From the IMG/VR virus record IMGVR_UViG_3300028549_001682: a DNA stretch of 36,910 bases, one strand, 5' to 3'. The notes under the pieces were generated by a model. The model did not search any database. It was not told where the DNA came from and saw nothing but the letters and a program-made list of their open reading frames with translations. Below are positions 1 through 36,910 of the stretch, piece after piece. Positions within the stretch are counted from its first letter, which is position 1. Each line of letters begins with the position of its first letter. Made by a program: the position numbers and the translations under genes. Source of the stretch: a virus.

Positions 1-245
1 TTAAAATAACAAAAAATGGAGGAAATGTTATAAGCTTTGTATCTACAACCGATGCAACAACACACAAAATTTATATAAACAGGCAAACTGGAACTTTCAT
101 CTACAAGATAACCAAAAAAGACAATGTTACATATGCACAAATACTAAATTTACCTCCTTACGATAATCGTTCCGATAGTTACAGATTAACTGCTGCTGGG
201 TATACAATGACGGCAGACTTTGAATTTAAACAAGTTACTACACAA
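1..245. repeat. Terminal direct repeat, copy 1 (identical to 36666..36910)
   Basis: Read base by base, 1..245 is the same string as 36666..36910. This implies a unit genome of 36,665 bp. Confidence 0.95.
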
Positions 246-884
246 ATAGGCCCAAATACTATAACACTGCCTGTAACTAGCACATTAGCGCTTGGACATT
301 CTTATCAAATATCAAACAAGGGAGGAGGAAAATTAACGATTAATAGTTCAGGATCTAATCGTGTTGGGTATGTCGAAATTGGCCAGACAATTGAAGTTAT
401 GTGCATATTGACATCTGGGACGACAGCAGCAAGCTGGCAATTATTGCCTGGCTTCCCAAATACTGTATCCGATACCATCTATTTTAATGAGCCGCTTAGT
501 TTCAAGCTAAATATGACTGCTGGTATATTATACACAGCCGTAGTTGCTACACCAGTTTCACCTTACGTTGCTGCATCTGGTGTATTTACCGCCCCTGCGG
601 ATGGTGTTTATTCATTTAATGCTATATTAGCTTTTACATCTGTTGAAATTGCTGCTACAAATCTCTATATGGCATTTGTCCATAGCACAGCTGGCAGTTT
701 TGAAAAGGATATTGATCCTAGGATATTTGCTGCATCGCCTGCAAGATATTCAATGTCATTAAGTTGGACGGTTAAAATGGCAGCAGCAGAAACTATGTCT
801 TTAAAATACAGGATTACCGGCGGTGCTTCAACTACAGATTTGAGCGGAACATTCAGTACATTCAGTGGGTGTAGGGTTATTTAA
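1..884 (+). CDS. Tail fibre protein, 3' part of the junction-spanning gene (codon phase starts at 3), with a C1q/TNF-like C-terminal head
   Basis: The frame of track ORF 207..884 is open back to base 3 and continues the ORF that starts at 36404. C-terminal motifs are GVFTAPADGVYSFNAILAF and STFSGCRVI. Confidence 0.8.
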   Translation, partial: KITKNGGNVISFVSTTDATTHKIYINRQTGTFIYKITKKDNVTYAQILNLPPYDNRSDSYRLTAAGYTMTADFEFKQVTTQIGPNTITLPVTSTLALGHSYQISNKGGGKLTINSSGSNRVGYVEIGQTIEVMCILTSGTTAASWQLLPGFPNTVSDTIYFNEPLSFKLNMTAGILYTAVVATPVSPYVAASGVFTAPADGVYSFNAILAFTSVEIAATNLYMAFVHSTAGSFEKDIDPRIFAASPARYSMSLSWTVKMAAAETMSLKYRITGGASTTDLSGTFSTFSGCRVI

Positions 885-1561: not shown

Positions 1562-3286
1562 ATGGCAATATTGAAAATAGACAATTATGAAGTTTCTCTT
1601 GGAAATAACAATTTGGTATTTTCAAAATCAGCATATTCATTTCAAGATTGGATAACAAAGGATATTCCCTACTCCGAAAGGATAACTTTGCCAGAAACTT
1701 CTTTGCTCAATACTATCTTTTTTAGACCGTACAGTCCAGAAATAACAGGCCAGAAATTCTCTCGAAACCACACTTTCAAGTATCTTGACAATAGTAAAAT
1801 AGTCAATTCTGGAATAGCAAGGCTATTGTCTTTTAATGACAATAATGAATATGAAGTTCAATTGATTGATTCAAGTTTCAATTTATTTTCAAATATTGAT
1901 GGTATTTTGTCAGATTTGGATTTTGAAAGCTCAGATTTTACATATAATTCTGGTTCATATGCTGATAAGAGAGTACTAAATTCAAGCGTTTGGATATGGT
2001 CTGCAAGCTCCATGCACACCGATAAAATACTTGCAAAAAATATATTGAGCGGTAATTTGGCATTTTCACGGCCTTTTTTGTCCGCAAAAAGGTTAATAGA
2101 AAAAATGTTTTCTGACAATGGATGGACATATACGCTTGATGATAATTCAAGTTTGTTTGACAAAATTATCATATCTGCAAAAAGCAATTTTGTTTTTACT
2201 TCATATGAAAAAAAATTTAATGCTACAATTTATGCAAGCGATCTAAATTTGTCGATTCCTGTTTTTTTGAAAACTGATACCTTAACAGGAACCACAGTTT
2301 TGAATTTGACATATAATTCAACATTTAGGTTTCGGGGCTATATTGATGCTACCGAAAATATGGTAATTACAATTACAGCAACGGGACCAAACCCTCAAGT
2401 GCAAAATTTACAAATCAACAAAGGATTGTTCTATTATGATTTGACAAGCAATGAGTTTCAAGCGGGATCTGCTGTTACTTTCGCTTTGTCTGGGGTTAGC
2501 TCTATTGAACTTATAGATTTTATATTGTACACAATCATAAACGAAAATGATTTCGGTGCAATGTCCGGGGCTATATTTACAGATTTTAAGGTAAAAACTT
2601 ACGATAATTTGCCAGAAATTACGCAAAAAGAATTATTCAAACATTGTCTTGTGAAAATTGGAGGGTTTTTTACAAGTGATAATTTTAGCAAAAAAATAAT
2701 TATTTCTTCATTGAAGTCATTGAACAAATTGAATGTAGTTGATTTTTCAGCAAAATATATATATAATAGCGATAATGTCTCAATGCTTGAATATTATGGC
2801 AAAAATAATTATTTCAATTATAACAATAATTCTGAAAAAAGCACGAATTTAGGTAAAGGACTATTTACAATTGACAATGAGGTTCTTGAAAATGTAAAGG
2901 ATATTTATAGCTCAATATTTGAAGCATCCAGCGAGGTTGTAATAACAAATTCTATGATCGACAATTCTATCTATGATGATACAGAAAGGATTCTTGACAC
3001 TAATGTACTTATTGCTTATTATGAAGTTATCGGTGCTTATACAGTTGCTAGGTTTGATTTGTTAAATGGCAACAATATATTATTGTCCTATTATGAAAAT
3101 TTTATAAAAGCTATACAAAGAGGTGAAATCTTTGAATCAAAATTTAATCTCAATAAATCTGATTATTTCAATTTTGATTTTACAAAGCTTATCTATATTA
3201 GTTCTAAAAAATCAATATTCTACTGCTTAGGAATTTCAGACTATTCAGAAAACGAAATGTGTACTATTCAATTATTAAAATTTTAG
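1562..3286 (+). CDS. Hypothetical large virion/tail protein
   Basis: 574-aa ORF in the late operon immediately upstream of the tape-measure gene. I recognised no family motif. Confidence 0.7.
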   Translation: MAILKIDNYEVSLGNNNLVFSKSAYSFQDWITKDIPYSERITLPETSLLNTIFFRPYSPEITGQKFSRNHTFKYLDNSKIVNSGIARLLSFNDNNEYEVQLIDSSFNLFSNIDGILSDLDFESSDFTYNSGSYADKRVLNSSVWIWSASSMHTDKILAKNILSGNLAFSRPFLSAKRLIEKMFSDNGWTYTLDDNSSLFDKIIISAKSNFVFTSYEKKFNATIYASDLNLSIPVFLKTDTLTGTTVLNLTYNSTFRFRGYIDATENMVITITATGPNPQVQNLQINKGLFYYDLTSNEFQAGSAVTFALSGVSSIELIDFILYTIINENDFGAMSGAIFTDFKVKTYDNLPEITQKELFKHCLVKIGGFFTSDNFSKKIIISSLKSLNKLNVVDFSAKYIYNSDNVSMLEYYGKNNYFNYNNNSEKSTNLGKGLFTIDNEVLENVKDIYSSIFEASSEVVITNSMIDNSIYDDTERILDTNVLIAYYEVIGAYTVARFDLLNGNNILLSYYENFIKAIQRGEIFESKFNLNKSDYFNFDFTKLIYISSKKSIFYCLGISDYSENEMCTIQLLKF

Positions 3287-3289
3287 GCT

Positions 3290-6200
3290 ATGGCAGACGA
3301 GCAAATTATTGTAGATATACGGGTAACTAAAGATGATATTGTCAATGCCAAAAATGAAATGGATAGGCTTACAATGTCAATTGACAATTTATCAAGCGAA
3401 ATAAAGGATGCGAGAGATAAGAATAAAGAATTGAACAAATCATTGAAAGAAGGCAAAATCTCAACTGAAGAATATAACAAAGCAGTTACAAAAAATAATG
3501 TTGAAATTGCACAATCATCAAATGAACTCAGAAAATTAAAGAATGAAAGGAACGCAAATATTAACGTTCTACAAAATGAGAAAAGTGCTTACGATGCTCT
3601 CTCATCAAAATTGAACCTAGCACGAAAAGAAGCAAAAGATTTGGGTGCTCAATTTGGCATTACTTCGTCTGAATTTAAGAATGCAGCAAAAACAGTCAAT
3701 CTTCTCGATAATGAACTCAAACAAATTGATGGTGCATTAGGACAACATCAGCGAAATGTCGGAAATTACGGATCTGTTTGGCAAGGTGTAGGAACCGATT
3801 TGAAAAACCTATTCCTTGGCGGTGGAATTGTTTTCGCAATCCAAAAGGGTATCGGCATACTTACAGATTTTGGCAAAGAATCTATACAGGCTGCAAGCGA
3901 TTCACAACAGGCATTTGCGAGAATAGAACAGGCAATAATAACAACGGGCGGGGCTGCTGGATATACAGCGGAACAGCTCAATGAAATGGCAGCTGGACTT
4001 CAAAAGATGACTATTTTTGAGGATGATCAGATTTTGACAGATGTTACATCTCAATTACTTACTTTCACAAATATAGCAGGGACACAATTTGAGCGTGCAC
4101 AAAAAGCGGCACTAGATATGTCAACTGTTTTAGGCAAAGATTTAAACGGTGCAATGGCGAAATTAGGACCGACTTCCATACAAATTGGAAAGGCTCTTAA
4201 TGATCCCATAAAAGGGATAACTGCACTTTCAAAAGCTGGTGTACAATTTTCAGAGGATCAAAAAGCTGTTATAAAATCATTAGTAGAGACTGGCAAGGTA
4301 GCCGAAGCACAAAACATGATACTTAACGAACTTGAAAAAGAATTTGGAGGACAGGCAAAAACAATGGCCGAATCTGGGTTGGGTCCAATCGAAAAACTTA
4401 AAAATAGCTGGGGGGACTTTAAAGAACTTATAGGAGGCGGATTAATCGGAATAATAAACCAGCTTGGAAAAATAGCAGGCGATGTTTTGGGTAAGGTTGT
4501 TGAATGGTTTCAAATTTCTTCAAAATATATAGTTGATTTCATCAATGGCTGGATTGGATTATATAACGAAAGTACTTCTTTTAGGTTGTTAATCGAAAGT
4601 ATATCTGTCACTTTTACAACACTTTATCAGACTGTTAAGCTTATAATGAATGGTTTTATTGATGTTTTCAAAGGGACTGGCAAAGTTTTGGCATATACTT
4701 TTAATCCTGCAAACTGGGGCGCTAATTTTGGCGAAGGTTTGAAAAAAATAATTCTCGAAAACAGCAAAGAAGTTATTACTGATGTCCTGGCTTATGGTTC
4801 AAATGTCGGTAATGCTTTCAATCAGGCTCTCGAAAATTCAAAGAATGGAAAAAAATCTTTGATTTCTCTGGATGATGTAAAAGCTGAAAATGTAAAAATA
4901 ATTGACGAAACAAAAAATTTTACTGATGAAATTACACAAATTAACTCCAACGCAGATTCCGAAAAAACAAAAAGAGCTGAAGAGGTTTCGAAAAAACTGA
5001 TTGAAATAAACAATAAAAAAAGACTTGCTGCTATACAAGATGAAACAATTTTAAAAGATGAAAAAATAAAAATTGAAGGAGAACTGTTGACTGCTCAACT
5101 ATTGTCACTTGAAGAGGGTTCAATAGAAAAAGAACTCTTGATTGCAGAATCCCAAGAACGGATCGCTGAAATAGAAAAAGAATACAACGAAAAACAGGAA
5201 AAGATTGCAGCCGAAAAGATGAAAAAAATAGAGGCGGCAAACGAAAAGATAGAAAAATTAAAAGACGATGCCGCAATAAAAGAAATCGAAAGACAAATAA
5301 AAGATGTTGAAAACTCAAAAGCTACAACAAAGGAAAAAAATGATAAAATTATTGAATTAGAACAACAAAAGAATGAAATATTGATTGCAATTGAGCTTGA
5401 AAAAGTCGCAAAAGCAAAAGAAAATAAATCATTAGAAGAGGCAGAGCTTCAAGCTATAATTACAGAATCGGAAATAAAGATTGCAGCCATTGAAGATGAG
5501 TTTGCGCTAAAGAAAAAAGAAAAAGAAGCAAAGGAAAAAGAGGAACAAATAATTGCACTACAAGAGGGTGTAGAAATAATTAGAAATCAATTATCACAAA
5601 TAAATGCAATAGTAGAGGAATTCGCAGGGGCACAAGCTGCAACTTTTGGAAAGGTAGCCGAATCAATGGTCGGGGCTTTTAAATCTGGAAAGATAACTGT
5701 AGAGAGCGCTATGAAAGCTTTGCAAGGTTCGTCTAATGCCATATTTGATGCTATAAGGGAAAGGGGTCAAGAAAACCTCGATGAAAATGAAATGCTCAGA
5801 CAAAAGGATCTTGAATTAGTTGGTGACAACAAAGAAGCTCAGGACAAAATAAATGTCTATTATGATGAAAGGGCAAAAGAAATGAAATTAAAGCAGTTCA
5901 AGATTGATAAAGCACAGGCTTTAGTTGAGATTGCAATTTCTACCGCCATGGCTGCCGTCAAAGCCCTTGCAAGTACATTCCCACCGTTATCATTTATTGC
6001 AGCTGGTTTGGCTGTTGCTTTCGGAGTTGCACAGGGCGCAATAGTTGCAGCCCAAAAGCCTCCTACTTTCGGAAAAGGAACATCTGATATTGTCAGTATT
6101 GGCGATTCTCATGCTTCTGGAAATGATGTTGATGTTTGGGGGTTTTCAGGTGGTAAAAGGCAATTTTTTGGAAAAGTTGAGCGAGGCGAGGCAATGCCAG

Positions 6201-6448
6201 TGATTAGAAAATCGGCCGCAAATGATTATCTTATCGCAAAAATGAACGGCCAATTTTCAGGACATAGCAAAACATTTGCAAATGGCACTCCTGATATTAC
6301 TCAATCGAATAATAATGCAGCAATAGGGCAAATGAACTCGGAACAATTGGCAAATGCTCTTAGCAAGGTTACTATTGTGGCAAAGATTGAAGATATAACA
6401 AAAGCTGCAAGCAAAAAAATACAGATAGTTGAAAATTCTAAATTTTAG
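3290..6448 (+). CDS. Tail tape measure-like protein
   Basis: 1052 aa. It has a TP901-type TMP core-like stretch (LLTFTNIAGTQFERAQKAALDMSTVLG...KGITALSKAGVQFSEDQKAVIKSL). It also has a long E/K-rich coiled coil and hydrophobic Gly/Ala segments. Confidence 0.85.
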   Translation: MADEQIIVDIRVTKDDIVNAKNEMDRLTMSIDNLSSEIKDARDKNKELNKSLKEGKISTEEYNKAVTKNNVEIAQSSNELRKLKNERNANINVLQNEKSAYDALSSKLNLARKEAKDLGAQFGITSSEFKNAAKTVNLLDNELKQIDGALGQHQRNVGNYGSVWQGVGTDLKNLFLGGGIVFAIQKGIGILTDFGKESIQAASDSQQAFARIEQAIITTGGAAGYTAEQLNEMAAGLQKMTIFEDDQILTDVTSQLLTFTNIAGTQFERAQKAALDMSTVLGKDLNGAMAKLGPTSIQIGKALNDPIKGITALSKAGVQFSEDQKAVIKSLVETGKVAEAQNMILNELEKEFGGQAKTMAESGLGPIEKLKNSWGDFKELIGGGLIGIINQLGKIAGDVLGKVVEWFQISSKYIVDFINGWIGLYNESTSFRLLIESISVTFTTLYQTVKLIMNGFIDVFKGTGKVLAYTFNPANWGANFGEGLKKIILENSKEVITDVLAYGSNVGNAFNQALENSKNGKKSLISLDDVKAENVKIIDETKNFTDEITQINSNADSEKTKRAEEVSKKLIEINNKKRLAAIQDETILKDEKIKIEGELLTAQLLSLEEGSIEKELLIAESQERIAEIEKEYNEKQEKIAAEKMKKIEAANEKIEKLKDDAAIKEIERQIKDVENSKATTKEKNDKIIELEQQKNEILIAIELEKVAKAKENKSLEEAELQAIITESEIKIAAIEDEFALKKKEKEAKEKEEQIIALQEGVEIIRNQLSQINAIVEEFAGAQAATFGKVAESMVGAFKSGKITVESAMKALQGSSNAIFDAIRERGQENLDENEMLRQKDLELVGDNKEAQDKINVYYDERAKEMKLKQFKIDKAQALVEIAISTAMAAVKALASTFPPLSFIAAGLAVAFGVAQGAIVAAQKPPTFGKGTSDIVSIGDSHASGNDVDVWGFSGGKRQFFGKVERGEAMPVIRKSAANDYLIAKMNGQFSGHSKTFANGTPDITQSNNNAAIGQMNSEQLANALSKVTIVAKIEDITKAASKKIQIVENSKF

Positions 6449-6633
6449 CACAAATATTTTTTTCTGTAATATTCCAAGTCCTCAGATTTGATCCGATATT
6501 CTGATCTCATTCCGTGCTTTACTTTTATTGCAGTAAGCTTTTCATTTTCTTTCCCAACCCCGTTTCGGACATAATTACGAATTGTCGCAGGCTCTACATT
6601 TATTATTTTTGATGCTTCTTTTATTGTGAGCAT
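6445..6633 (-). CDS. Small HTH DNA-binding protein (excisionase/AlpA-like, HTH_17-type)
   Basis: 62 aa. LTIKEASKIINVEPATIRNYVRNG fits the helix-turn-helix pattern of excisionase-family binders. Confidence 0.6.
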   Translation of the reverse strand: MLTIKEASKIINVEPATIRNYVRNGVGKENEKLTAIKVKHGMRSEYRIKSEDLEYYRKKYLC

Positions 6634-6797
6634 AATTCGTATTTTTTAAGTTTGTAATAATAAAATAATTGGTCTATAAGCCCATCGCAAGGCTTTTGTT
6701 TTGAAAAATAAACAATCATTTTCCTTGCATTTTCTAGTTGCATATAATCAATACAGCCTTCAATAGATGCTCTTATTTTTTCAAAATTTTCGTACAT
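6621..6797 (-). CDS. Possible small hypothetical protein (58 aa, below the track cutoff)
   Basis: Hand translation gives MYENFEKIRASIEGCIDYMQLENARKMIVYFSKQKPCDGLIDQLFYYYKLKKYELCSQ. Its 3' end overlaps the HTH gene start by 13 nt. Confidence 0.35.
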   Translation of the reverse strand: MYENFEKIRASIEGCIDYMQLENARKMIVYFSKQKPCDGLIDQLFYYYKLKKYELCSQ

Positions 6798-6905
6798 AAT
6801 TTATTTATTTGTAAACGTTTGTAATTGCATAAGTAAATATATCCGGTAACTGTTAATGTACTGGTTATTATTGTCTTATAAATTTTAGTGGCGAATATAC
6901 ACACG

Positions 6906-7127
6906 TTAGCCGTCATTATGAATGCGCTCAACTTCCTTAAATAATCTTGGCATGAAATCTCCAGACTTTTTAAAATTTGTACCCTCTTCAAACCACGCCA
7001 ATTCTTGTTCAGTTACTGGGAATATTAGATTAGCTCTTACAGTTAATTCAATAAATAACGAACGGCTAACATCAGCTATATTTAATTGCTGGTTATCTGC
7101 GATATTCAAGTTTTGTTCTTCGTTCAT
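6906..7127 (-). CDS. Small acidic hypothetical protein
   Basis: 73-aa ORF with an ATG start, net acidic, with an internal NLNIAD/QLNIAD repeat. Confidence 0.5.
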   Translation of the reverse strand: MNEEQNLNIADNQQLNIADVSRSLFIELTVRANLIFPVTEQELAWFEEGTNFKKSGDFMPRLFKEVERIHNDG

Positions 7128-16905: not shown

Positions 16906-17043
16906 TTACATGAAACTGCCGTTTGTTTCATCAGCATCATCAATTTCACGTTTTTTCTCAATTACCACAAGCCCGGCGAATAGCAATATAAAGCTTATCA
17001 AACCTGCTATATAAAGTACTGTATCAAATGTTTCTTTTTCCAT
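16906..17043 (-). CDS. Possible small single-pass membrane protein (45 aa)
   Basis: Hand translation gives MEKETFDTVLYIAGLISFILLFAGLVVIEKKREIDDADETNGSFM. It starts 2 nt after the stop of the upstream gene. Confidence 0.4.
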   Translation of the reverse strand: MEKETFDTVLYIAGLISFILLFAGLVVIEKKREIDDADETNGSFM

Positions 17044-17044
17044 G

Positions 17045-17779
17045 TTATTGTTCGATTATTGCTATTTCAGGACAAATCGCAGTAATTTCAACAAGCTCGT
17101 CATTGATTGCTTGGTCCCTAATATCCTCAACCAATGCCTGTGCTCCAGGAGATAGAAGCGTGAACGAAACTTCCTTGCCGTTGATCTGTGCAAAGGTTTC
17201 AACCTCGATAATCTGGGCGGGGAACCCCTTGAAAATTTGCAGCTTCAGGTTGATAGATTTTGGAAGGTTAGAGTTGACAGTTTGCTCAAAATTGTCAGTC
17301 CTGTCACCGCTTTCTTTGGCCGAACGCTGGATGCTGTTGTTGACCGTGGCTGTGAAGTTCATCAGCTCGCTCACAAGCTTCATGTTTTCCTCTCTGGAAG
17401 TGAAAAAAGCACGGTTCATTTTGAAGAACATTCCAAGGCTGGAAGGTGTCCAAACCTTCCCAGAATTGATTCCGAACTCTTTGAATTTTGGATGCGATTC
17501 AAGCTTTCCCGAAACAGAACCCTTAAGGTATTCGTCGTGTTCGTTAGTAACGAGGCAGATAAGCATCTGCTCACGGTCAACGATTACATGGCTTCGTTTT
17601 GGTGGTATTTGGTCTATCCTTTTTGCCAAAAACTCCGCAGGGGCACCAATTGTGCCAATGATAGCAATCCTTATAGGCGGTTTAATTTCCAGTTCGTTAA
17701 CTGTTGAAACCTCGCGGATAACGATTTCAGCTGTCTTTTGGCCATCGGCCATTACAATTTTAAAATTCTCGTTTTTCAT
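17045..17779 (-). CDS. Hypothetical protein (GC-elevated block)
   Basis: 244-aa ORF with an ATG start. Local GC is about 47% on hand-counted lines. The long plus-strand ORFs over it are mirror artefacts. Confidence 0.7.
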   Translation of the reverse strand: MKNENFKIVMADGQKTAEIVIREVSTVNELEIKPPIRIAIIGTIGAPAEFLAKRIDQIPPKRSHVIVDREQMLICLVTNEHDEYLKGSVSGKLESHPKFKEFGINSGKVWTPSSLGMFFKMNRAFFTSREENMKLVSELMNFTATVNNSIQRSAKESGDRTDNFEQTVNSNLPKSINLKLQIFKGFPAQIIEVETFAQINGKEVSFTLLSPGAQALVEDIRDQAINDELVEITAICPEIAIIEQ

Positions 17780-17799
17780 TTTTATAAATTTAAAATTTA

Positions 17800-18102
17800 T
17801 TAGTTTTCAGTCCCAGTGCGCTTCATCTGGAATATAGTGCCTTGCAGTTCGTCTGCATATGCCGGACGGCTCTCTATAAGTTCTCCCTCCTCGTTGTAAT
17901 ATCCCACCTCCCTTGCATCCATGTCAACAAATTTGTAGCAGTTCTCTACTTTATGTTCTGCCTTGTTTTTAAGTCCCGTTAGCAGCCTTTTCTTTTCATC
18001 GTTCAAAGGTTCAAGCCTGAACTTGAACTCTGACATAACCGCTTTTTTGTCCTCCTCTATATCGTTGATCTGAATAGCCGTTTCTGAAAGGTGCTCCTTC
18101 AT
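17800..18102 (-). CDS. Hypothetical protein
   Basis: The track ORF starts at TTG 18108. The first ATG, at 18102, gives MKEHLSETAIQ.... Confidence 0.55.
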   Translation of the reverse strand: MKEHLSETAIQINDIEEDKKAVMSEFKFRLEPLNDEKKRLLTGLKNKAEHKVENCYKFVDMDAREVGYYNEEGELIESRPAYADELQGTIFQMKRTGTEN

Positions 18103-26838: not shown

Positions 26839-28248
26839 ATGGAATTTAAGCCTCTTGATGTATATGAACCATTATATTTTACTCCAAAAAATGTAAGGTA
26901 TATATCATGTTGCGGTGGCCGTGGGGCTGGAAGGTCTCACAATTCGTCTGAATATTTGATTTTCAAGATAACAAGAAAAGTATACTTTCGTGCTTTAATT
27001 GCAAGAGCTTATTATTCAGACCTTAAAAAAACAACATGGCTGGAATTTTTGGATAGGATAAATTCAACTGAAGGACTTGATATTGAAAATTTTGAAATAA
27101 ACAACACCGAAAAAATAATAAAATACAAACCCACTGGCAACACAATAACCGGAATAGGATTCCATAAAGCAGCAGGTAATAGAAAAGCAAGCCTTAAAGC
27201 CTTTGCAAATGTTACAGATTTACTGATTGAAGAGGCTCAGGAACTGACAGAGACGGAACTTAATCAAATTGATGATAGCCTCCGAACAACCAAAAGCCCA
27301 ATAAAGATAATTTTTGCTTACAATATGCCTGAAAAAAGCCATATTCTCATGAAAAGGTTTTTTGATTTGCAACCTGTTAATCTGGTTTGTGGAAATGGAA
27401 TCAAGCACGAAGGATATTGCAAGGCTATTCCAAAATCGGAGCGTGATGACCATATAATGATTTTTTCTACTTACCACGATAATTATGAAAATCTTGATAA
27501 GCATACTATTGAAAATTACGAACGTTACAATTTTGAAAACCCGGAACATTATTTTACCGAAATTTTGGGGCTTGTTTCAGGCGGTGCGAAAGGTGTAATT
27601 TTTAAATATGAAATAAACTGGTTCATATATACCGAACTCCCAGATATTGATTTTTATGAAACATACGGATTGGATTTTGGCGGTGGAGGTGTCAATGGAA
27701 ATAGGAACTGTTATCCTGATATGTTCCAATTTGATGAATCTGACGGGAGTTCTACAACAGTATTGGTCAGGCTGTTAATTAACAAATCTTCAATGAGTTG
27801 CTATGTTAAATTATTACTATACAAGGCTTACATTTCACCTGATGAACTTAGTAAAGCTTGCCAGCATTTCACAATTGAGCCAGACGGCAATTTCTTTAAG
27901 AAAAAAAATATTCTCGCAGATAATGCCAGGGCTGACAAAATTCGGGACTTGATAAATGATGGACTTAACGTTATTGGTGCAAAGACAAAAGAAGGTGGCT
28001 CTAACAAGGTAGTAACTGGAATAGACATCATGAAAAAATACAAGATTTTTTTTCTTGAAACTGATATTCCATGCCACATGGATGCAAACAATTATAAATG
28101 GGAGGTATCTAATATAACAGGAGAATTAACAGGTAATCATGTCAAGAAATTTGAAAATGTTATTGATGCTATCAGGTATCCTTTAGTTAATTTTGATTTA
28201 TATCACTGGTCTGTTATTGGAATTTTTTTTTATATTTGTAGTGCCTAA
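26839..28248 (+). CDS. terL: Terminase large subunit (Terminase_3/PBSX-like)
   Basis: Walker A-like CCGGRGAGRSH, Walker B LLIEEAQE, and a C-terminal nuclease motif VIDAIRY. Confidence 0.9.
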   Translation: MEFKPLDVYEPLYFTPKNVRYISCCGGRGAGRSHNSSEYLIFKITRKVYFRALIARAYYSDLKKTTWLEFLDRINSTEGLDIENFEINNTEKIIKYKPTGNTITGIGFHKAAGNRKASLKAFANVTDLLIEEAQELTETELNQIDDSLRTTKSPIKIIFAYNMPEKSHILMKRFFDLQPVNLVCGNGIKHEGYCKAIPKSERDDHIMIFSTYHDNYENLDKHTIENYERYNFENPEHYFTEILGLVSGGAKGVIFKYEINWFIYTELPDIDFYETYGLDFGGGGVNGNRNCYPDMFQFDESDGSSTTVLVRLLINKSSMSCYVKLLLYKAYISPDELSKACQHFTIEPDGNFFKKKNILADNARADKIRDLINDGLNVIGAKTKEGGSNKVVTGIDIMKKYKIFFLETDIPCHMDANNYKWEVSNITGELTGNHVKKFENVIDAIRYPLVNFDLYHWSVIGIFFYICSA

Positions 28249-30716: not shown

Positions 30717-31337
30717 ATGACAGAAGTAGATCCTATTTTTACAACGTGGCTAAATTCAACTCCGCCCGCTTATCCTAGTGATATTCCTAGTATAACAGGA
30801 TTAGAAGCAACTGAAAATAAGGATGCTTCAAACGGATATGTAGGGCTAACATTATACGCACATAATTTCTGGAATGCAGCAAAAACATTCCTAACAACGG
30901 TTATTGGAACAGCAACAGAAACAAGAACTATTCTACTGCCAAATGCGAGCGGAACACTAGCATTAACAACTGATATAGTAAACAGCCGCTTACAATCCTA
31001 TACAACAACAGCAACCGCAACAGGAACGACTACCTTAACCGCTGCATCCAATTTCATGCAGTATTTTACTGGCACATTGGGACAAATTATTGTAATGCCT
31101 GATGTTACGACTTTAGTTTTAGGTTTTCAATTCAAGATAATCAATAACAGTACACAAGCTTTGACATTAAATTCAAGCGGTGGAAATTTGATTATTTCTT
31201 TGGCAGCTGGTAGCGAAATAACATTGACCTGCATATTGATAACAGGTACAACCGCTGCAAGCTGGTCAAAATTGGCCGAAGCTGTCAATATTCCAGCAAG
31301 TGAGAAAGCCGTAACAATCGGAACTACTGGATTATAG
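30717..31337 (+). CDS. Tail fibre-like protein B
   Basis: It has the fibre-type motif LLPNASGTLALTTD and Thr-rich repeats. It shares a 63-aa module with the junction-spanning fibre. GGAGG lies 7 nt upstream of its start. Confidence 0.7.
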   Translation: MTEVDPIFTTWLNSTPPAYPSDIPSITGLEATENKDASNGYVGLTLYAHNFWNAAKTFLTTVIGTATETRTILLPNASGTLALTTDIVNSRLQSYTTTATATGTTTLTAASNFMQYFTGTLGQIIVMPDVTTLVLGFQFKIINNSTQALTLNSSGGNLIISLAAGSEITLTCILITGTTAASWSKLAEAVNIPASEKAVTIGTTGL

Positions 31338-31349
31338 ACTAGCTATGAT

Positions 31350-31670
31350 TTGCAAGCTCATATAATTGCAGTTGGGACATTGGCATCTCAAAGCTGGGTA
31401 ACTGGTCAAGCAACTTACACAGGATTGCAGGGACAATGGACGGCGGATGCAAATTACAAATATGATTGTATTGCTACAAACATTTGGATAAGGACACCAA
31501 TCAATGAAGCAAGGTATGATAGCAAATTGAACGATGTTCATTACGTAATTGACAGAGAAACAAGCAATTCTTACATATACGTAGTATACATATACCCTTC
31601 ACATCAAGGATTATTTGATATGATTAATGCCGCTTACGGATACGAAATTATTAAAATTGAAACAAGATGA
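31350..31670 (+). CDS. In-frame continuation of fibre B, or a separate TTG-initiated ORF
   Basis: It is in the same frame as 30717..31337, and only the TAG at 31335..31337 intervenes. There is no ATG until codon 91 of 106. The N-terminus AVGTLASQSWVTGQ is fibre-like. Confidence 0.5.
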   Translation: MQAHIIAVGTLASQSWVTGQATYTGLQGQWTADANYKYDCIATNIWIRTPINEARYDSKLNDVHYVIDRETSNSYIYVVYIYPSHQGLFDMINAAYGYEIIKIETR

Positions 31671-31807
31671 ACACTTTAAGGGTAAAAGTAGTGAGGGATT
31701 CAACAGGTGTAGGGGCAGATACATATAATGATGACCTAGGAATAGATTATATCGATGTTCATTATATAACAAATAGAAATGGCAGTTTAAACGAAGCAAG
31801 CGATTAA
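31667..31807 (+). CDS. Possible 46-aa ORF
   Basis: ATGA overlap with the upstream stop. Hand translation gives MNTLRVKVVRDSTGVGADTYNDDLGIDYIDVHYITNRNGSLNEASD. Confidence 0.3.
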   Translation: MNTLRVKVVRDSTGVGADTYNDDLGIDYIDVHYITNRNGSLNEASD

Positions 31808-31859: not shown

Positions 31860-32612
31860 ATGAGCGACACAATTCTAGTGACTTTTATAGTGCAAATCTT
31901 TGGTATTATAGGCTTTTTCGCCAAATCGTGGAGCGACAAAAGAGCAAACCAAAAAGAAACAACTACCAGGGATAAAAATTTCCAACTGAAGGTATTAGAA
32001 ATCCAATCTGAAAATACTAATATCAACATGGAATTGATAGAAATTAAGGATATGCTGAAAACCCATATAGTAGATAATGATTTCCAGTTAAAATATAAAA
32101 ACGCTCTGCAAAACAGAGCTACTCATGAACTTTACAAGCTTCAAAACCTTTCAACGCAGCATCAATTGATATTGTCTGCATGGAATGAAATAATAGAAAA
32201 ATTCGGGATTAAGTGGTATTATTCAGATTTGAGAAAAGATCAAAAGGACAAAAAAGCGAATGGAGAAAAAATTCAAACTGTAAAAAAAGATATACAAGAT
32301 ACATTAACTCATGAAATAAATCTAAAAATTGAGTTCATGGACAAAATAATCCGGCAAAATATTACATGCCCAAAAATAGTCCAGGCATCAAAGATGTATT
32401 TCGATGAGTTCATCAATGGCAAAAGAGAAAATCTAATGCCTATCCACTCACGAACCGAACTTTTAATTTTAGCCTTGGCCGAAAATGGACTATCAAATGA
32501 TGGGTATATTGATTTATTTGAAAATTATCTGATTGAATTCTATACAAATTATAAAAGAAAATTGGACATTTGGCAATCAATCCCATGTCCTGAATATCAA
32601 GATATAGACTAA
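31860..32612 (+). CDS. Membrane-anchored hypothetical protein (N-terminal TM helix)
   Basis: 250 aa. ILVTFIVQIFGIIGFFA is a TM segment, followed by a helical soluble domain. TAATG coupling to the next gene. Confidence 0.6.
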   Translation: MSDTILVTFIVQIFGIIGFFAKSWSDKRANQKETTTRDKNFQLKVLEIQSENTNINMELIEIKDMLKTHIVDNDFQLKYKNALQNRATHELYKLQNLSTQHQLILSAWNEIIEKFGIKWYYSDLRKDQKDKKANGEKIQTVKKDIQDTLTHEINLKIEFMDKIIRQNITCPKIVQASKMYFDEFINGKRENLMPIHSRTELLILALAENGLSNDGYIDLFENYLIEFYTNYKRKLDIWQSIPCPEYQDID

Positions 32613-32980
32613 TGTTTACGAGAAAGAACTATAATCAAATGCCTGAAATTGTAATTGATGAAACTTTAAATATCATTACAGTATCAGGTAATTCGATACC
32701 TGAAGATTCGAAAGAATGTTGGTACCCTTTTATTAATGAATTTGAATTTCTATTCGAGAAATGGCCTAAAATAACGTTTAATTGGAAATTCGATATATAC
32801 AATACTGCAACAACTTCACATATTGCGAAAATTTTCGATATGCTTTTTAAAGTTTCACAAAAAAAAGAAGTTGTAATTAATTGGTATTATTTGTTGGCAG
32901 ATGAAGACATGATGGAAGCAGGAGAAACTTATAAGGATTTATATAATTTTAATAAATTTAACCTAATTGTAAGGAAATGA
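32612..32980 (+). CDS. SiaC-like / DUF1987-family protein (partner-switch phosphoprotein fold)
   Basis: Full-length pattern match to DUF1987 as recalled. The three matching segments are SGNSIPEDSKECWYPFINEF, FDIYNTATTSHIAKIFDML and VVINWYYLLADEDMMEAGETYKDL. Confidence 0.7.
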   Translation: MFTRKNYNQMPEIVIDETLNIITVSGNSIPEDSKECWYPFINEFEFLFEKWPKITFNWKFDIYNTATTSHIAKIFDMLFKVSQKKEVVINWYYLLADEDMMEAGETYKDLYNFNKFNLIVRK

Positions 32981-33193: not shown

Positions 33194-33658
33194 ATGACAA
33201 TAATTGAAGGCATAATAAAAGAAGTTGAAAAATTCAATGATTCAATTCGTGATGCCTTGGATTTAAAGAACATTTCAAATACAAGGGAGGCCTCCAATTC
33301 ATTAAGGATTGATTATGGAGAAGATTTTGTGAGTTCGATTGGTATTTTTTATCTTGAATTTTTGGATACTGGCAGGGGTACAGGTAAAATGCCTCCAATT
33401 TCTCCGATAAAGGATTGGGCAAAAAATAAATTCGGTGTTGATGATAAAGAAGCTTTAAGTATTGCGTTTGCAGTTGCTCACAAAATAGCTGTTTTGGGTA
33501 CTGAAATTTTCATAAATAATTCAAAAGGGATTGAACTTGAAAAAAAAGTATTAAATTTGAAAGAAAATATAAATGCAAATGTTGGACAATATGCAGTATC
33601 TGAAATAAAACAAGTTCTTGACAAATATAAAAAATTATATAACTTAACACTAAATTAA
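33194..33658 (+). CDS. Hypothetical virion protein
   Basis: 154-aa ORF with an ATG start. Confidence 0.6.
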   Translation: MTIIEGIIKEVEKFNDSIRDALDLKNISNTREASNSLRIDYGEDFVSSIGIFYLEFLDTGRGTGKMPPISPIKDWAKNKFGVDDKEALSIAFAVAHKIAVLGTEIFINNSKGIELEKKVLNLKENINANVGQYAVSEIKQVLDKYKKLYNLTLN

Positions 33659-36403: not shown

Positions 36404-36910
36404 ATGGCTATCAAAAATAGAACAGAGGCAATTGCGGAAGTAAATGCAAAGCTAGTTCCAACAATTACTGCTGCAATTCATAGAGATAATCTAAATAATG
36501 ACATTCTTAACAGTGTAAAATTCGATAAAGATGTTATAGGAACGGAAACGCCTGTTGCTGGAGCTGTTACGGTTGATTTTTCCACAAAGGATCTTGCAAC
36601 GCTTACTACTATTGTTAACTTGTCTGTAACAATCACAGGTCTGGAAAATGGTGCTGAAAAATATATTAAAATAACAAAAAATGGAGGAAATGTTATAAGC
36701 TTTGTATCTACAACCGATGCAACAACACACAAAATTTATATAAACAGGCAAACTGGAACTTTCATCTACAAGATAACCAAAAAAGACAATGTTACATATG
36801 CACAAATACTAAATTTACCTCCTTACGATAATCGTTCCGATAGTTACAGATTAACTGCTGCTGGGTATACAATGACGGCAGACTTTGAATTTAAACAAGT
36901 TACTACACAA
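36404..36910 (+). CDS. Tail fibre protein, 5' part of the junction-spanning gene (runs off the window end and continues at 3..884)
   Basis: Hand translation from the ATG at 36404 (MAIKNRTEAIAEVNAKLVPT...) meets no stop before the window end. It is in frame with 207..884 via the terminal repeat (36872-36404 = 468). Confidence 0.75.
   Translation, partial: MAIKNRTEAIAEVNAKLVPTITAAIHRDNLNNDILNSVKFDKDVIGTETPVAGAVTVDFSTKDLATLTTIVNLSVTITGLENGAEKYIKITKNGGNVISFVSTTDATTHKIYINRQTGTFIYKITKKDNVTYAQILNLPPYDNRSDSYRLTAAGYTMTADFEFKQVTTQ
36666..36910. repeat. Terminal direct repeat, copy 2 (identical to 1..245)
   Basis: Same string as 1..245. Confidence 0.95.

Follow-up and report, generated by a model that had tools for sequence, protein, structure and literature searches.

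A probable young amber mutation in a degenerate, partly deleted tail-fibre gene of a complete phage genome

The split fibre-B frame and its genome

The window in this study, that is, the whole stretch of DNA that was analysed, is the 36,910-nt IMG/VR virus record IMGVR_UViG_3300028549_001682. It is a complete, circularly permuted phage genome in which positions 1..245 are repeated at 36666..36910, leaving 36,665 unique bases. The terminase gene lies at 26839..28248 (PF04466), and the genome also encodes a portal, a ClpP-type protease, a capsid-like protein, RecT and a tape-measure protein. Fibre A (381 aa) is encoded by 36404..36910 continuing at 246..884, and because this gene crosses the artificial ends of the record, the listed ORF 207..884 covers no more than the 3' portion of it. 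Apart from the 106-aa ORF described below, all ~40 genes start with ATG, and Shine-Dalgarno motifs are almost absent, which is typical of hosts such as Bacteroidota. Among 39 genes, the stop codon is TAA in 21, TGA in 11 and TAG in 7.

Fibre B is read from the ATG at 30717 and ends with ...GGA TTA TAG, where the TAG occupies 31335-31337 and the C-terminus of the 206-aa product is ...AVTIGTTGL. Past the TAG, the same frame reads TSYDLQAHIIAVGTLASQSWVTGQ... and stays open for 110 codons until the TGA at 31668-31670; from the base composition (stop probability 0.080 per codon), the chance of such an open run is ~1e-4. The earliest start-like codon in this run is the TTG at 31350, which sits 12 nt downstream of the TAG and from which a 106-aa ORF is called, with its first Met at residue 91. 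This confirmed the original prediction of an in-frame TAG between fibre B and an ORF that lacks an ATG before codon 91. Same-frame neighbours are common in this genome (five other gene pairs, with the next ATG within 1-8 codons of the stop), and the oddity of the locus lies in the absent ATG together with the continuous sequence; the shared frame is not unusual. The features of the locus are as follows.

30717..31337, + strand: truncated fibre-B ORF of 206 aa with an ATG start and a premature TAG stop.
30981..31274, + strand: widespread beta-sandwich module, residues 89-186, common to fibre A.
31335..31337, + strand: amber codon TAG, a C-to-T change from CAG (Gln) by comparison with the related contigs L008 and L012.
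31338..31521, + strand: stranded fibre continuation, 61 codons long and equivalent to the first half of a conserved distal module, 86% identical to L008.
31350..31352, + strand: TTG called as the start of the 106-aa ORF, probably no real start; it encodes Leu in a conserved ...YDLQ... motif.
31522..31529, + strand: putative deletion or recombination junction; the fibre match ends at 31521, the match to a 130-aa gene begins at 31530, and the fusion is in frame.
31530..31670, + strand: 3' remnant of this separate 130-aa gene, comprising its last 47 codons and TGA, in frame with the fibre fragment.

The exact 206-aa product was found on 15 contigs in addition to contig L011, from JGI, Logan/SRA and ENA assemblies. 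We read seven of these contigs, of which six (L001-L006) came from four JGI samples, one SRA run and one ENA assembly, and the seventh (L011) from another SRA run. They are 99.98-100% identical to the window and show zero differences to it over 30717..31670. The sole polymorphism among them is a synonymous T/C at 33475 in the 154-aa gene, and the TAG is present on both alleles. The assemblies carrying the TAG may in part share one project. Several samples and assemblers gave the same TAG, which is therefore a true genotype and no assembly artefact. A sequencing error had been among the options of the original prediction, and a single-base change at 31335 with C as the true base is what such an error would require; the contigs, which represent four JGI samples, two SRA runs and one ENA assembly and come from different assemblers, agree throughout 30717..31670, and this excludes it for all practical purposes and leaves an assembly or sequencing error with virtually no chance. 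The population is essentially clonal, and therefore no test of selection is possible.

Homologues at the amber position

Profile searches with phrog_4209 ('tail fiber protein') matched fibre A with E = 3.5e-5 and fibre B weakly with E = 0.058, while the stretch downstream of the TAG matched phrog_17312 ('tail protein') with E = 9.4e-5. No fibre match was found in Pfam, PDB sequences or INPHARED, and blastn and tblastn searches of INPHARED gave no match. A module shared by fibre A and fibre B had been described as 63 aa long; the module does exist, with 40% identity to window 162..446 by tblastn, but it extends over about 98 aa.

A search with the fibre-B protein gave 259 matches that passed the E-value cut-off, and the best 120 of these 259 were considered. 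Most of the 120 cover the shared module alone, and 14 of them span the site of the TAG with a sense residue, with no stop there. P0002 (465 aa) has 66% identity to fibre B, which matches internal parts of both P0002 and P0128 (744 aa). Where P0002 reads ...ASEKALSVGTTGVKQDYDIIEQII..., its counterpart in the window is ...ASEKAVTIGTTGL*TSYDLQAHII..., and the tblastn alignment of P0002 forms one segment, 30723..31541, across the TAG. The same holds for P0004, P0007 and P0011, whose alignments also cross the TAG in one piece.

Searched exhaustively with HMMER, the 110 downstream residues matched 62 cluster representatives (E up to 0.001). In the fibre-type matches the segment is always internal, for example at residues 424-498 of 744, 242-315 of 465 and 1091-1165 of 1205, and none of them begins at the segment; apart from the gene called in the window itself, no protein starts there. 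The arrangement that would have spoken against a single gene, homologues encoding the two parts as separate genes, was thus not found. When 22 homologues were aligned, the TAG column contained Q in 12, H in 4, K in 3, N in 2 and L in 1, and a stop in none. The column lies within the conserved motif [AS]GEK..T....G[VI]Q..YD.

At the DNA level, an intact 744-aa fibre is encoded on contigs L008 (ENA) and L012 (JGI), two sequences with 99.8% mutual identity. Window 30951..31521 has an ungapped counterpart in L008 (1360..1930), which spans the TAG at 86% nucleotide identity. Both contigs read GGA TTA CAG ACT where the window reads GGA TTA TAG ACT, and the more distant L009 has AAA at this codon. 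Because the closest relative, L008 (86%), has CAG, the TAG in the window arose by a single C-to-T transition in a Gln codon. A sense codon in relatives, proposed earlier as a check, is thus present in L008 and L012 and in 22/22 aligned homologues, and CAG in an 86% identical relative agrees with a recent nonsense mutation, one of the options listed at the outset. As the homologues are contiguous across the site, the sequence from 31338 onwards is the continuation of fibre B and no independent gene. Continuous homologues, a stop that is one substitution from sense and a TAG that is no assembly artefact are what a nonsense-disrupted gene shows, and all three were found here.

The chimeric extension and its variable cassette

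Of the 61 residues in the stranded continuation, 54 match residues 424-484 of P0128. The fibre part of the frame ends with ...WIRTPINEARYD and is followed by the C-terminal third of an unrelated small protein, and the long frame carries the chimeric peptide ...INEARYDSKLNDVHY... A search with the 110 residues alone found three proteins of 130-131 aa (P0122-P0124, MNYIRSN...PSHQGLFDMIN.AYGYEIIKIETR), whose C-termini (...GYEIIKIETR) share 77-81% aa identity with the last 47 residues of the window ORF; the match lies within residues 62-110 of the downstream stretch. In L008 the 130-aa gene lies at 3063..3455, downstream of the fibre and a 110-aa NHL-repeat gene, and L008 3315..3456 shares 78% nucleotide identity with window 31530..31671. 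No function for the 130-aa family was obtained from Pfam or PHROGs. The ATGA overlap with the next ORF is retained at the end of the chimera, as in L008, and the stop is inherited.

The junction comprises 8 nt in the window, against 1384 nt (1931..3314) in L008. Relative to L008, the window lacks ~1.38 kb, namely the second half of the conserved module, the head domain, the NHL-repeat gene and, from the 130-aa gene, 84 codons. Because no parent of this very phage was found in which the locus is intact, the deletion is deduced from another phage with which it has the fibre segment in common. No clear microhomology was seen at the junction against L008, itself not the true parent. After ...RYD, the homologues P0002, P0004, P0007, P0128 and P0129 and the short P0158, P0160 and P0162 continue with (D)LYL.D.DDS...K.T...L..AYP.A..GQ.V.G....Y.K....W..., and of the ten residues that are invariant in the module alignment, four fall in the deleted half.

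The AlphaFold model of the fused 317-aa protein has a mean pLDDT of 50.5 and is confident only in the shared module (residues 95-190, pLDDT 73-86); its quality is low around the TAG and along the chimeric tail, it cannot place the TAG structurally, and it gave weak Foldseek matches. The model of P0002 contains a folded module at residues 250-355 (pLDDT 86-94) followed by a head at 361-465 (pLDDT 87-93). The breakpoint, at about residue 308 of P0002, lies inside the folded module, and the head is absent from the window. The best Foldseek match of P0002 was the baseplate chain 8gtc_T of siphophage R4C (E = 2.3e-4, with a TM score of only 0.21/0.41), and its other weak matches were jelly-roll or carbohydrate-binding-module folds. 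The original prediction took 31350..31670 for the distal tip of fibre B. This held for the fibre continuation up to 31521, but 31530..31670 corresponds to the 3' end of the 130-aa gene and the true distal domains are lost; the extension is not the distal tip.

The 5' end of fibre B was also compared with P0002. Homology begins at P0002 residue 76, and GGAGGCGA, just upstream of the ATG at 30717, aligns with Gly-Gly-Asp codons of P0002, with the TAA of the previous gene eight codons further up. This is suggestive of a cut at the 5' end of fibre B as well, in which case the apparent ribosome-binding site may be left-over coding sequence. The segment 30693..30716 holds the only strong GGAGG before any gene of the genome, aligned with the Gly-Gly-Asp hinge codons. 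At the other end, a 46-aa ORF (31667..31807) overlaps the stop of the chimeric frame by ATGA, at a position where L008 has a 251-aa BNR-like gene. A search of 5.8 billion proteins found no homologue of it but itself, and it may be a further remnant or a spurious ORF.

Re-initiation at the TTG at 31350 could in principle split the gene and give a separate 106-aa protein, such as an adaptor or assembly factor. The stop and the TTG are close together, and the 106-aa ORF is called in all assemblies. However, ATG starts all of the ~40 other genes, the TTG encodes a Leu within a conserved motif, and in no homologue does the fibre segment form the beginning of a protein. The product would join one half of a domain to 47 residues from an unrelated protein. 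A Shine-Dalgarno check of the TTG was uninformative, because the genome hardly uses such motifs. A split gene is thus very improbable. The 106-aa ORF called in every assembly is no gene, and the proper annotation is the stranded 3' portion of a disrupted fibre gene, fused to the remnant of another gene.

The surroundings of fibre B were compared with L010 (JBAZTV010000004.1, a 38.9-kb contig), whose terminase is 76% aa identical and which is collinear around the fibre-B locus. Its slot between the homologues of the 151-aa and 154-aa genes contains an intact but unrelated fibre-like protein of 682 aa together with a GH43-like protein, and L008 has only the fibre segment in common with the window. 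The fibre-B locus is a mosaic, fast-changing receptor-binding cassette, and broken copies are therefore to be expected there. IMG/VR scans with the downstream ORF and with the terminase found nothing, and a scan with the upstream 151-aa gene gave one weak match of 17 residues (L007). Degenerate DNA patterns across the TAG site and the conserved tail had no match in the viral and genome collections. The metagenome scan returned L012 alone, the second copy of L008, from a collection that seemingly lacks the window's own samples.

Some further observations concern the cassette and its relative. L010 (1..11652) is the only relative of the phage in the genome collection and is binned in a 'Candidatus Shapirobacteria' MAG. 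Its size and gene order suggest a whole phage genome that was either mis-binned or points to a host in the candidate phyla radiation. In its 344-aa ORF (6041..7075), the 151-aa gene of the window is present twice, as fused tandem copies. Within the fibre cassette of the window, 32612..32980 encodes a SiaC-family regulatory phosphoprotein (PF09345, E = 1.3e-21) that looks like cargo.

Read-through, recoding and gene disruption

The finding of a TAG where relatives have Gln, in a late structural gene, resembles phages with genetic code 15. If the whole phage read TAG as Gln, as certain crAss-like and other gut phages do, the codon would again give exactly the ancestral residue, and one pipeline called the gene in this way. 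According to reports on code-15 phages, these genomes have many in-frame TAGs, a gain in coding density on recoding and usually suppressor tRNAs (PMC9523058; PMC10607447, PMC10879173), whereas none of these was seen in the window genome. The split in fibre B is the single such site. ARAGORN found no tRNA gene in the whole genome, and thus no suppressor tRNA (anticodon CUA), and TAG terminates 7 of 39 genes, including the tape-measure gene. When TAG was read as sense, the summed length of ORFs of at least 100 aa rose from 12441 to 13667 aa, only through the joining of two pairs of same-frame neighbours. Genome-wide recoding was therefore rejected, having a negligible probability, and a lone in-frame TAG at an ancestral Gln should not be taken as recoding without genome-wide support.

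Two related calls deserve mention. A 574-aa ORF (1562..3286, no family match) ends with TAG, and one codon on, in the same frame, lies the ATG of the 1052-aa tape-measure gene (3290..6448); the two would give ~1630 aa if TAG were sense, and this is probably ordinary adjacency. P0125 (317 aa, Gln at position 207) was considered as a sense-codon variant and rejected, as its contig L011 (SRR10915309) is 100% identical to the window and has the TAG. Because the DNA of L011 still carries the TAG, P0125 is an artefact of alternative-code calling on a short contig, and the 317-aa 'fused' protein in public collections is thus a product of gene calling.

We also considered functional read-through or suppression, with Gln or another residue placed at the UAG at 31335 and both the 206-aa and 317-aa isoforms in the virion. 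The frame is open for 110 codons and the genotype is fixed in all contigs. Near-cognate decoding of UAG or a supE-type suppressor would insert Gln, which is also the ancestral residue. The base after the TAG is A, and TAG-A is a relatively weak termination context in E. coli. Substitutions assigned to the window lineage by polarisation with L009 were 20 synonymous to 1 non-synonymous upstream of the TAG and 14 to 2 downstream. On the other hand, no homologue has a stop here or nearby, and the stop is conserved in none of the 22 aligned homologues. The genome lacks a tRNA gene and ends seven genes with TAG. No stimulatory structure was detected 3' of the TAG, where the RNA fold had z = -1.07, 30 of 200 shuffles folded as well, and no Rfam match was obtained. 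The extension itself is a truncated module joined to a fragment of a foreign gene, with no head domain, and the only 317-aa protein in the databases, P0125, was called with TAG as Gln on TAG-bearing DNA. Hence the programmed read-through or tRNA suppression of the original prediction was not supported, and read-through of this kind is quite improbable. If true, it would be a rare stop-leakage source of fibre isoforms in a dsDNA phage.

For the 47-codon tail, the comparison with the 130-aa gene of L008 gave an omega of ~0.03, with dS saturated. The stranded sequence therefore shows no decay yet, which would be expected if the TAG is young and equally if the frame is still translated. We gave little weight to the points that keep read-through alive, because the low dN/dS was mostly accrued in intact genes and the extension has no tip domains. 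A leaky amber in the host, yielding a minor fibre-B isoform whose 111-residue chimeric extension is kept by selection for assembly or as a new tip, is distinctly improbable. It would mean that a new fibre end came from a deletion fusion and is expressed through a single unprogrammed stop. A fixed TAG, an open chimeric frame and the lack of decay fit a very recent mutation equally well.

The probable explanation is that a fibre gene which is degenerate and has lost part of its sequence acquired an amber mutation recently. Fibre B would belong to the modular tail-fibre (receptor-binding) genes and be a degenerate copy within a variable cassette. A single C-to-T transition converted a conserved Gln codon from CAG to TAG. 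Translation from the ATG at 30717 should therefore end after 206 residues. The 110 following codons are left-over coding sequence, the first 61 from the fibre and the last 47 from the 130-aa gene, and the two pieces were apparently put in frame by a deletion or an illegitimate recombination in which ~1.38 kb was lost. The TAG is probably evolutionarily young, because the stranded sequence has not yet decayed. We infer that the downstream stretch is not made in useful amounts and would arise at most in traces, by leakage at the UAG or by re-initiation at the TTG at 31350. The TAG genotype is fixed in every contig seen, and the phage is therefore evidently viable with it; it would get by with other fibre-like proteins, such as fibre A. 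The loss of the distal part may have been neutral or selected. Read in this way, the locus indicates that the receptor-binding cassettes of uncultured phages erode by point mutation and deletion while the phage persists.

The closest known analogue of this gene disruption is the side tail fibre gene stf of lambda PaPa, the laboratory lambda, which is split into orf401 and orf314. The split of lambda PaPa stf was reportedly first described by Hendrix and Duda in 1992. In both cases an accessory fibre gene would be broken by a point-type mutation into two adjacent, separately annotated ORFs, and the phage is viable. Loss-of-function mutations in stf are readily selected under some conditions (PMC2762979). 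The lesion of lambda PaPa stf is a frameshift, whereas that of fibre B is an amber with both parts in one frame; in addition, the distal part of fibre B is apparently deleted and fused to a neighbouring gene, and an intact wild version of it was not seen.

The coat/A1 system of Q-beta (UGA) resembles fibre B in that a structural ORF, a single stop and an in-frame extension are present. The stop and the extension of Q-beta are conserved and the long form is essential, while the stop of fibre B occurs in no relative and its extension looks like a deletion chimera. As in the mosaic tail-fibre and receptor-binding cassettes of other phages, modules at this locus are common to unrelated phages (L008) and a different gene occupies the slot in L010; unlike those cassettes, the copy in the window appears to be cut at its 5' end, in the middle by the TAG and at its 3' end. 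Elsewhere in the genome, two ORFs of 269 and 244 aa (17028..17837 on the + strand and 17045..17779 on the - strand) overlap almost completely on opposite strands.
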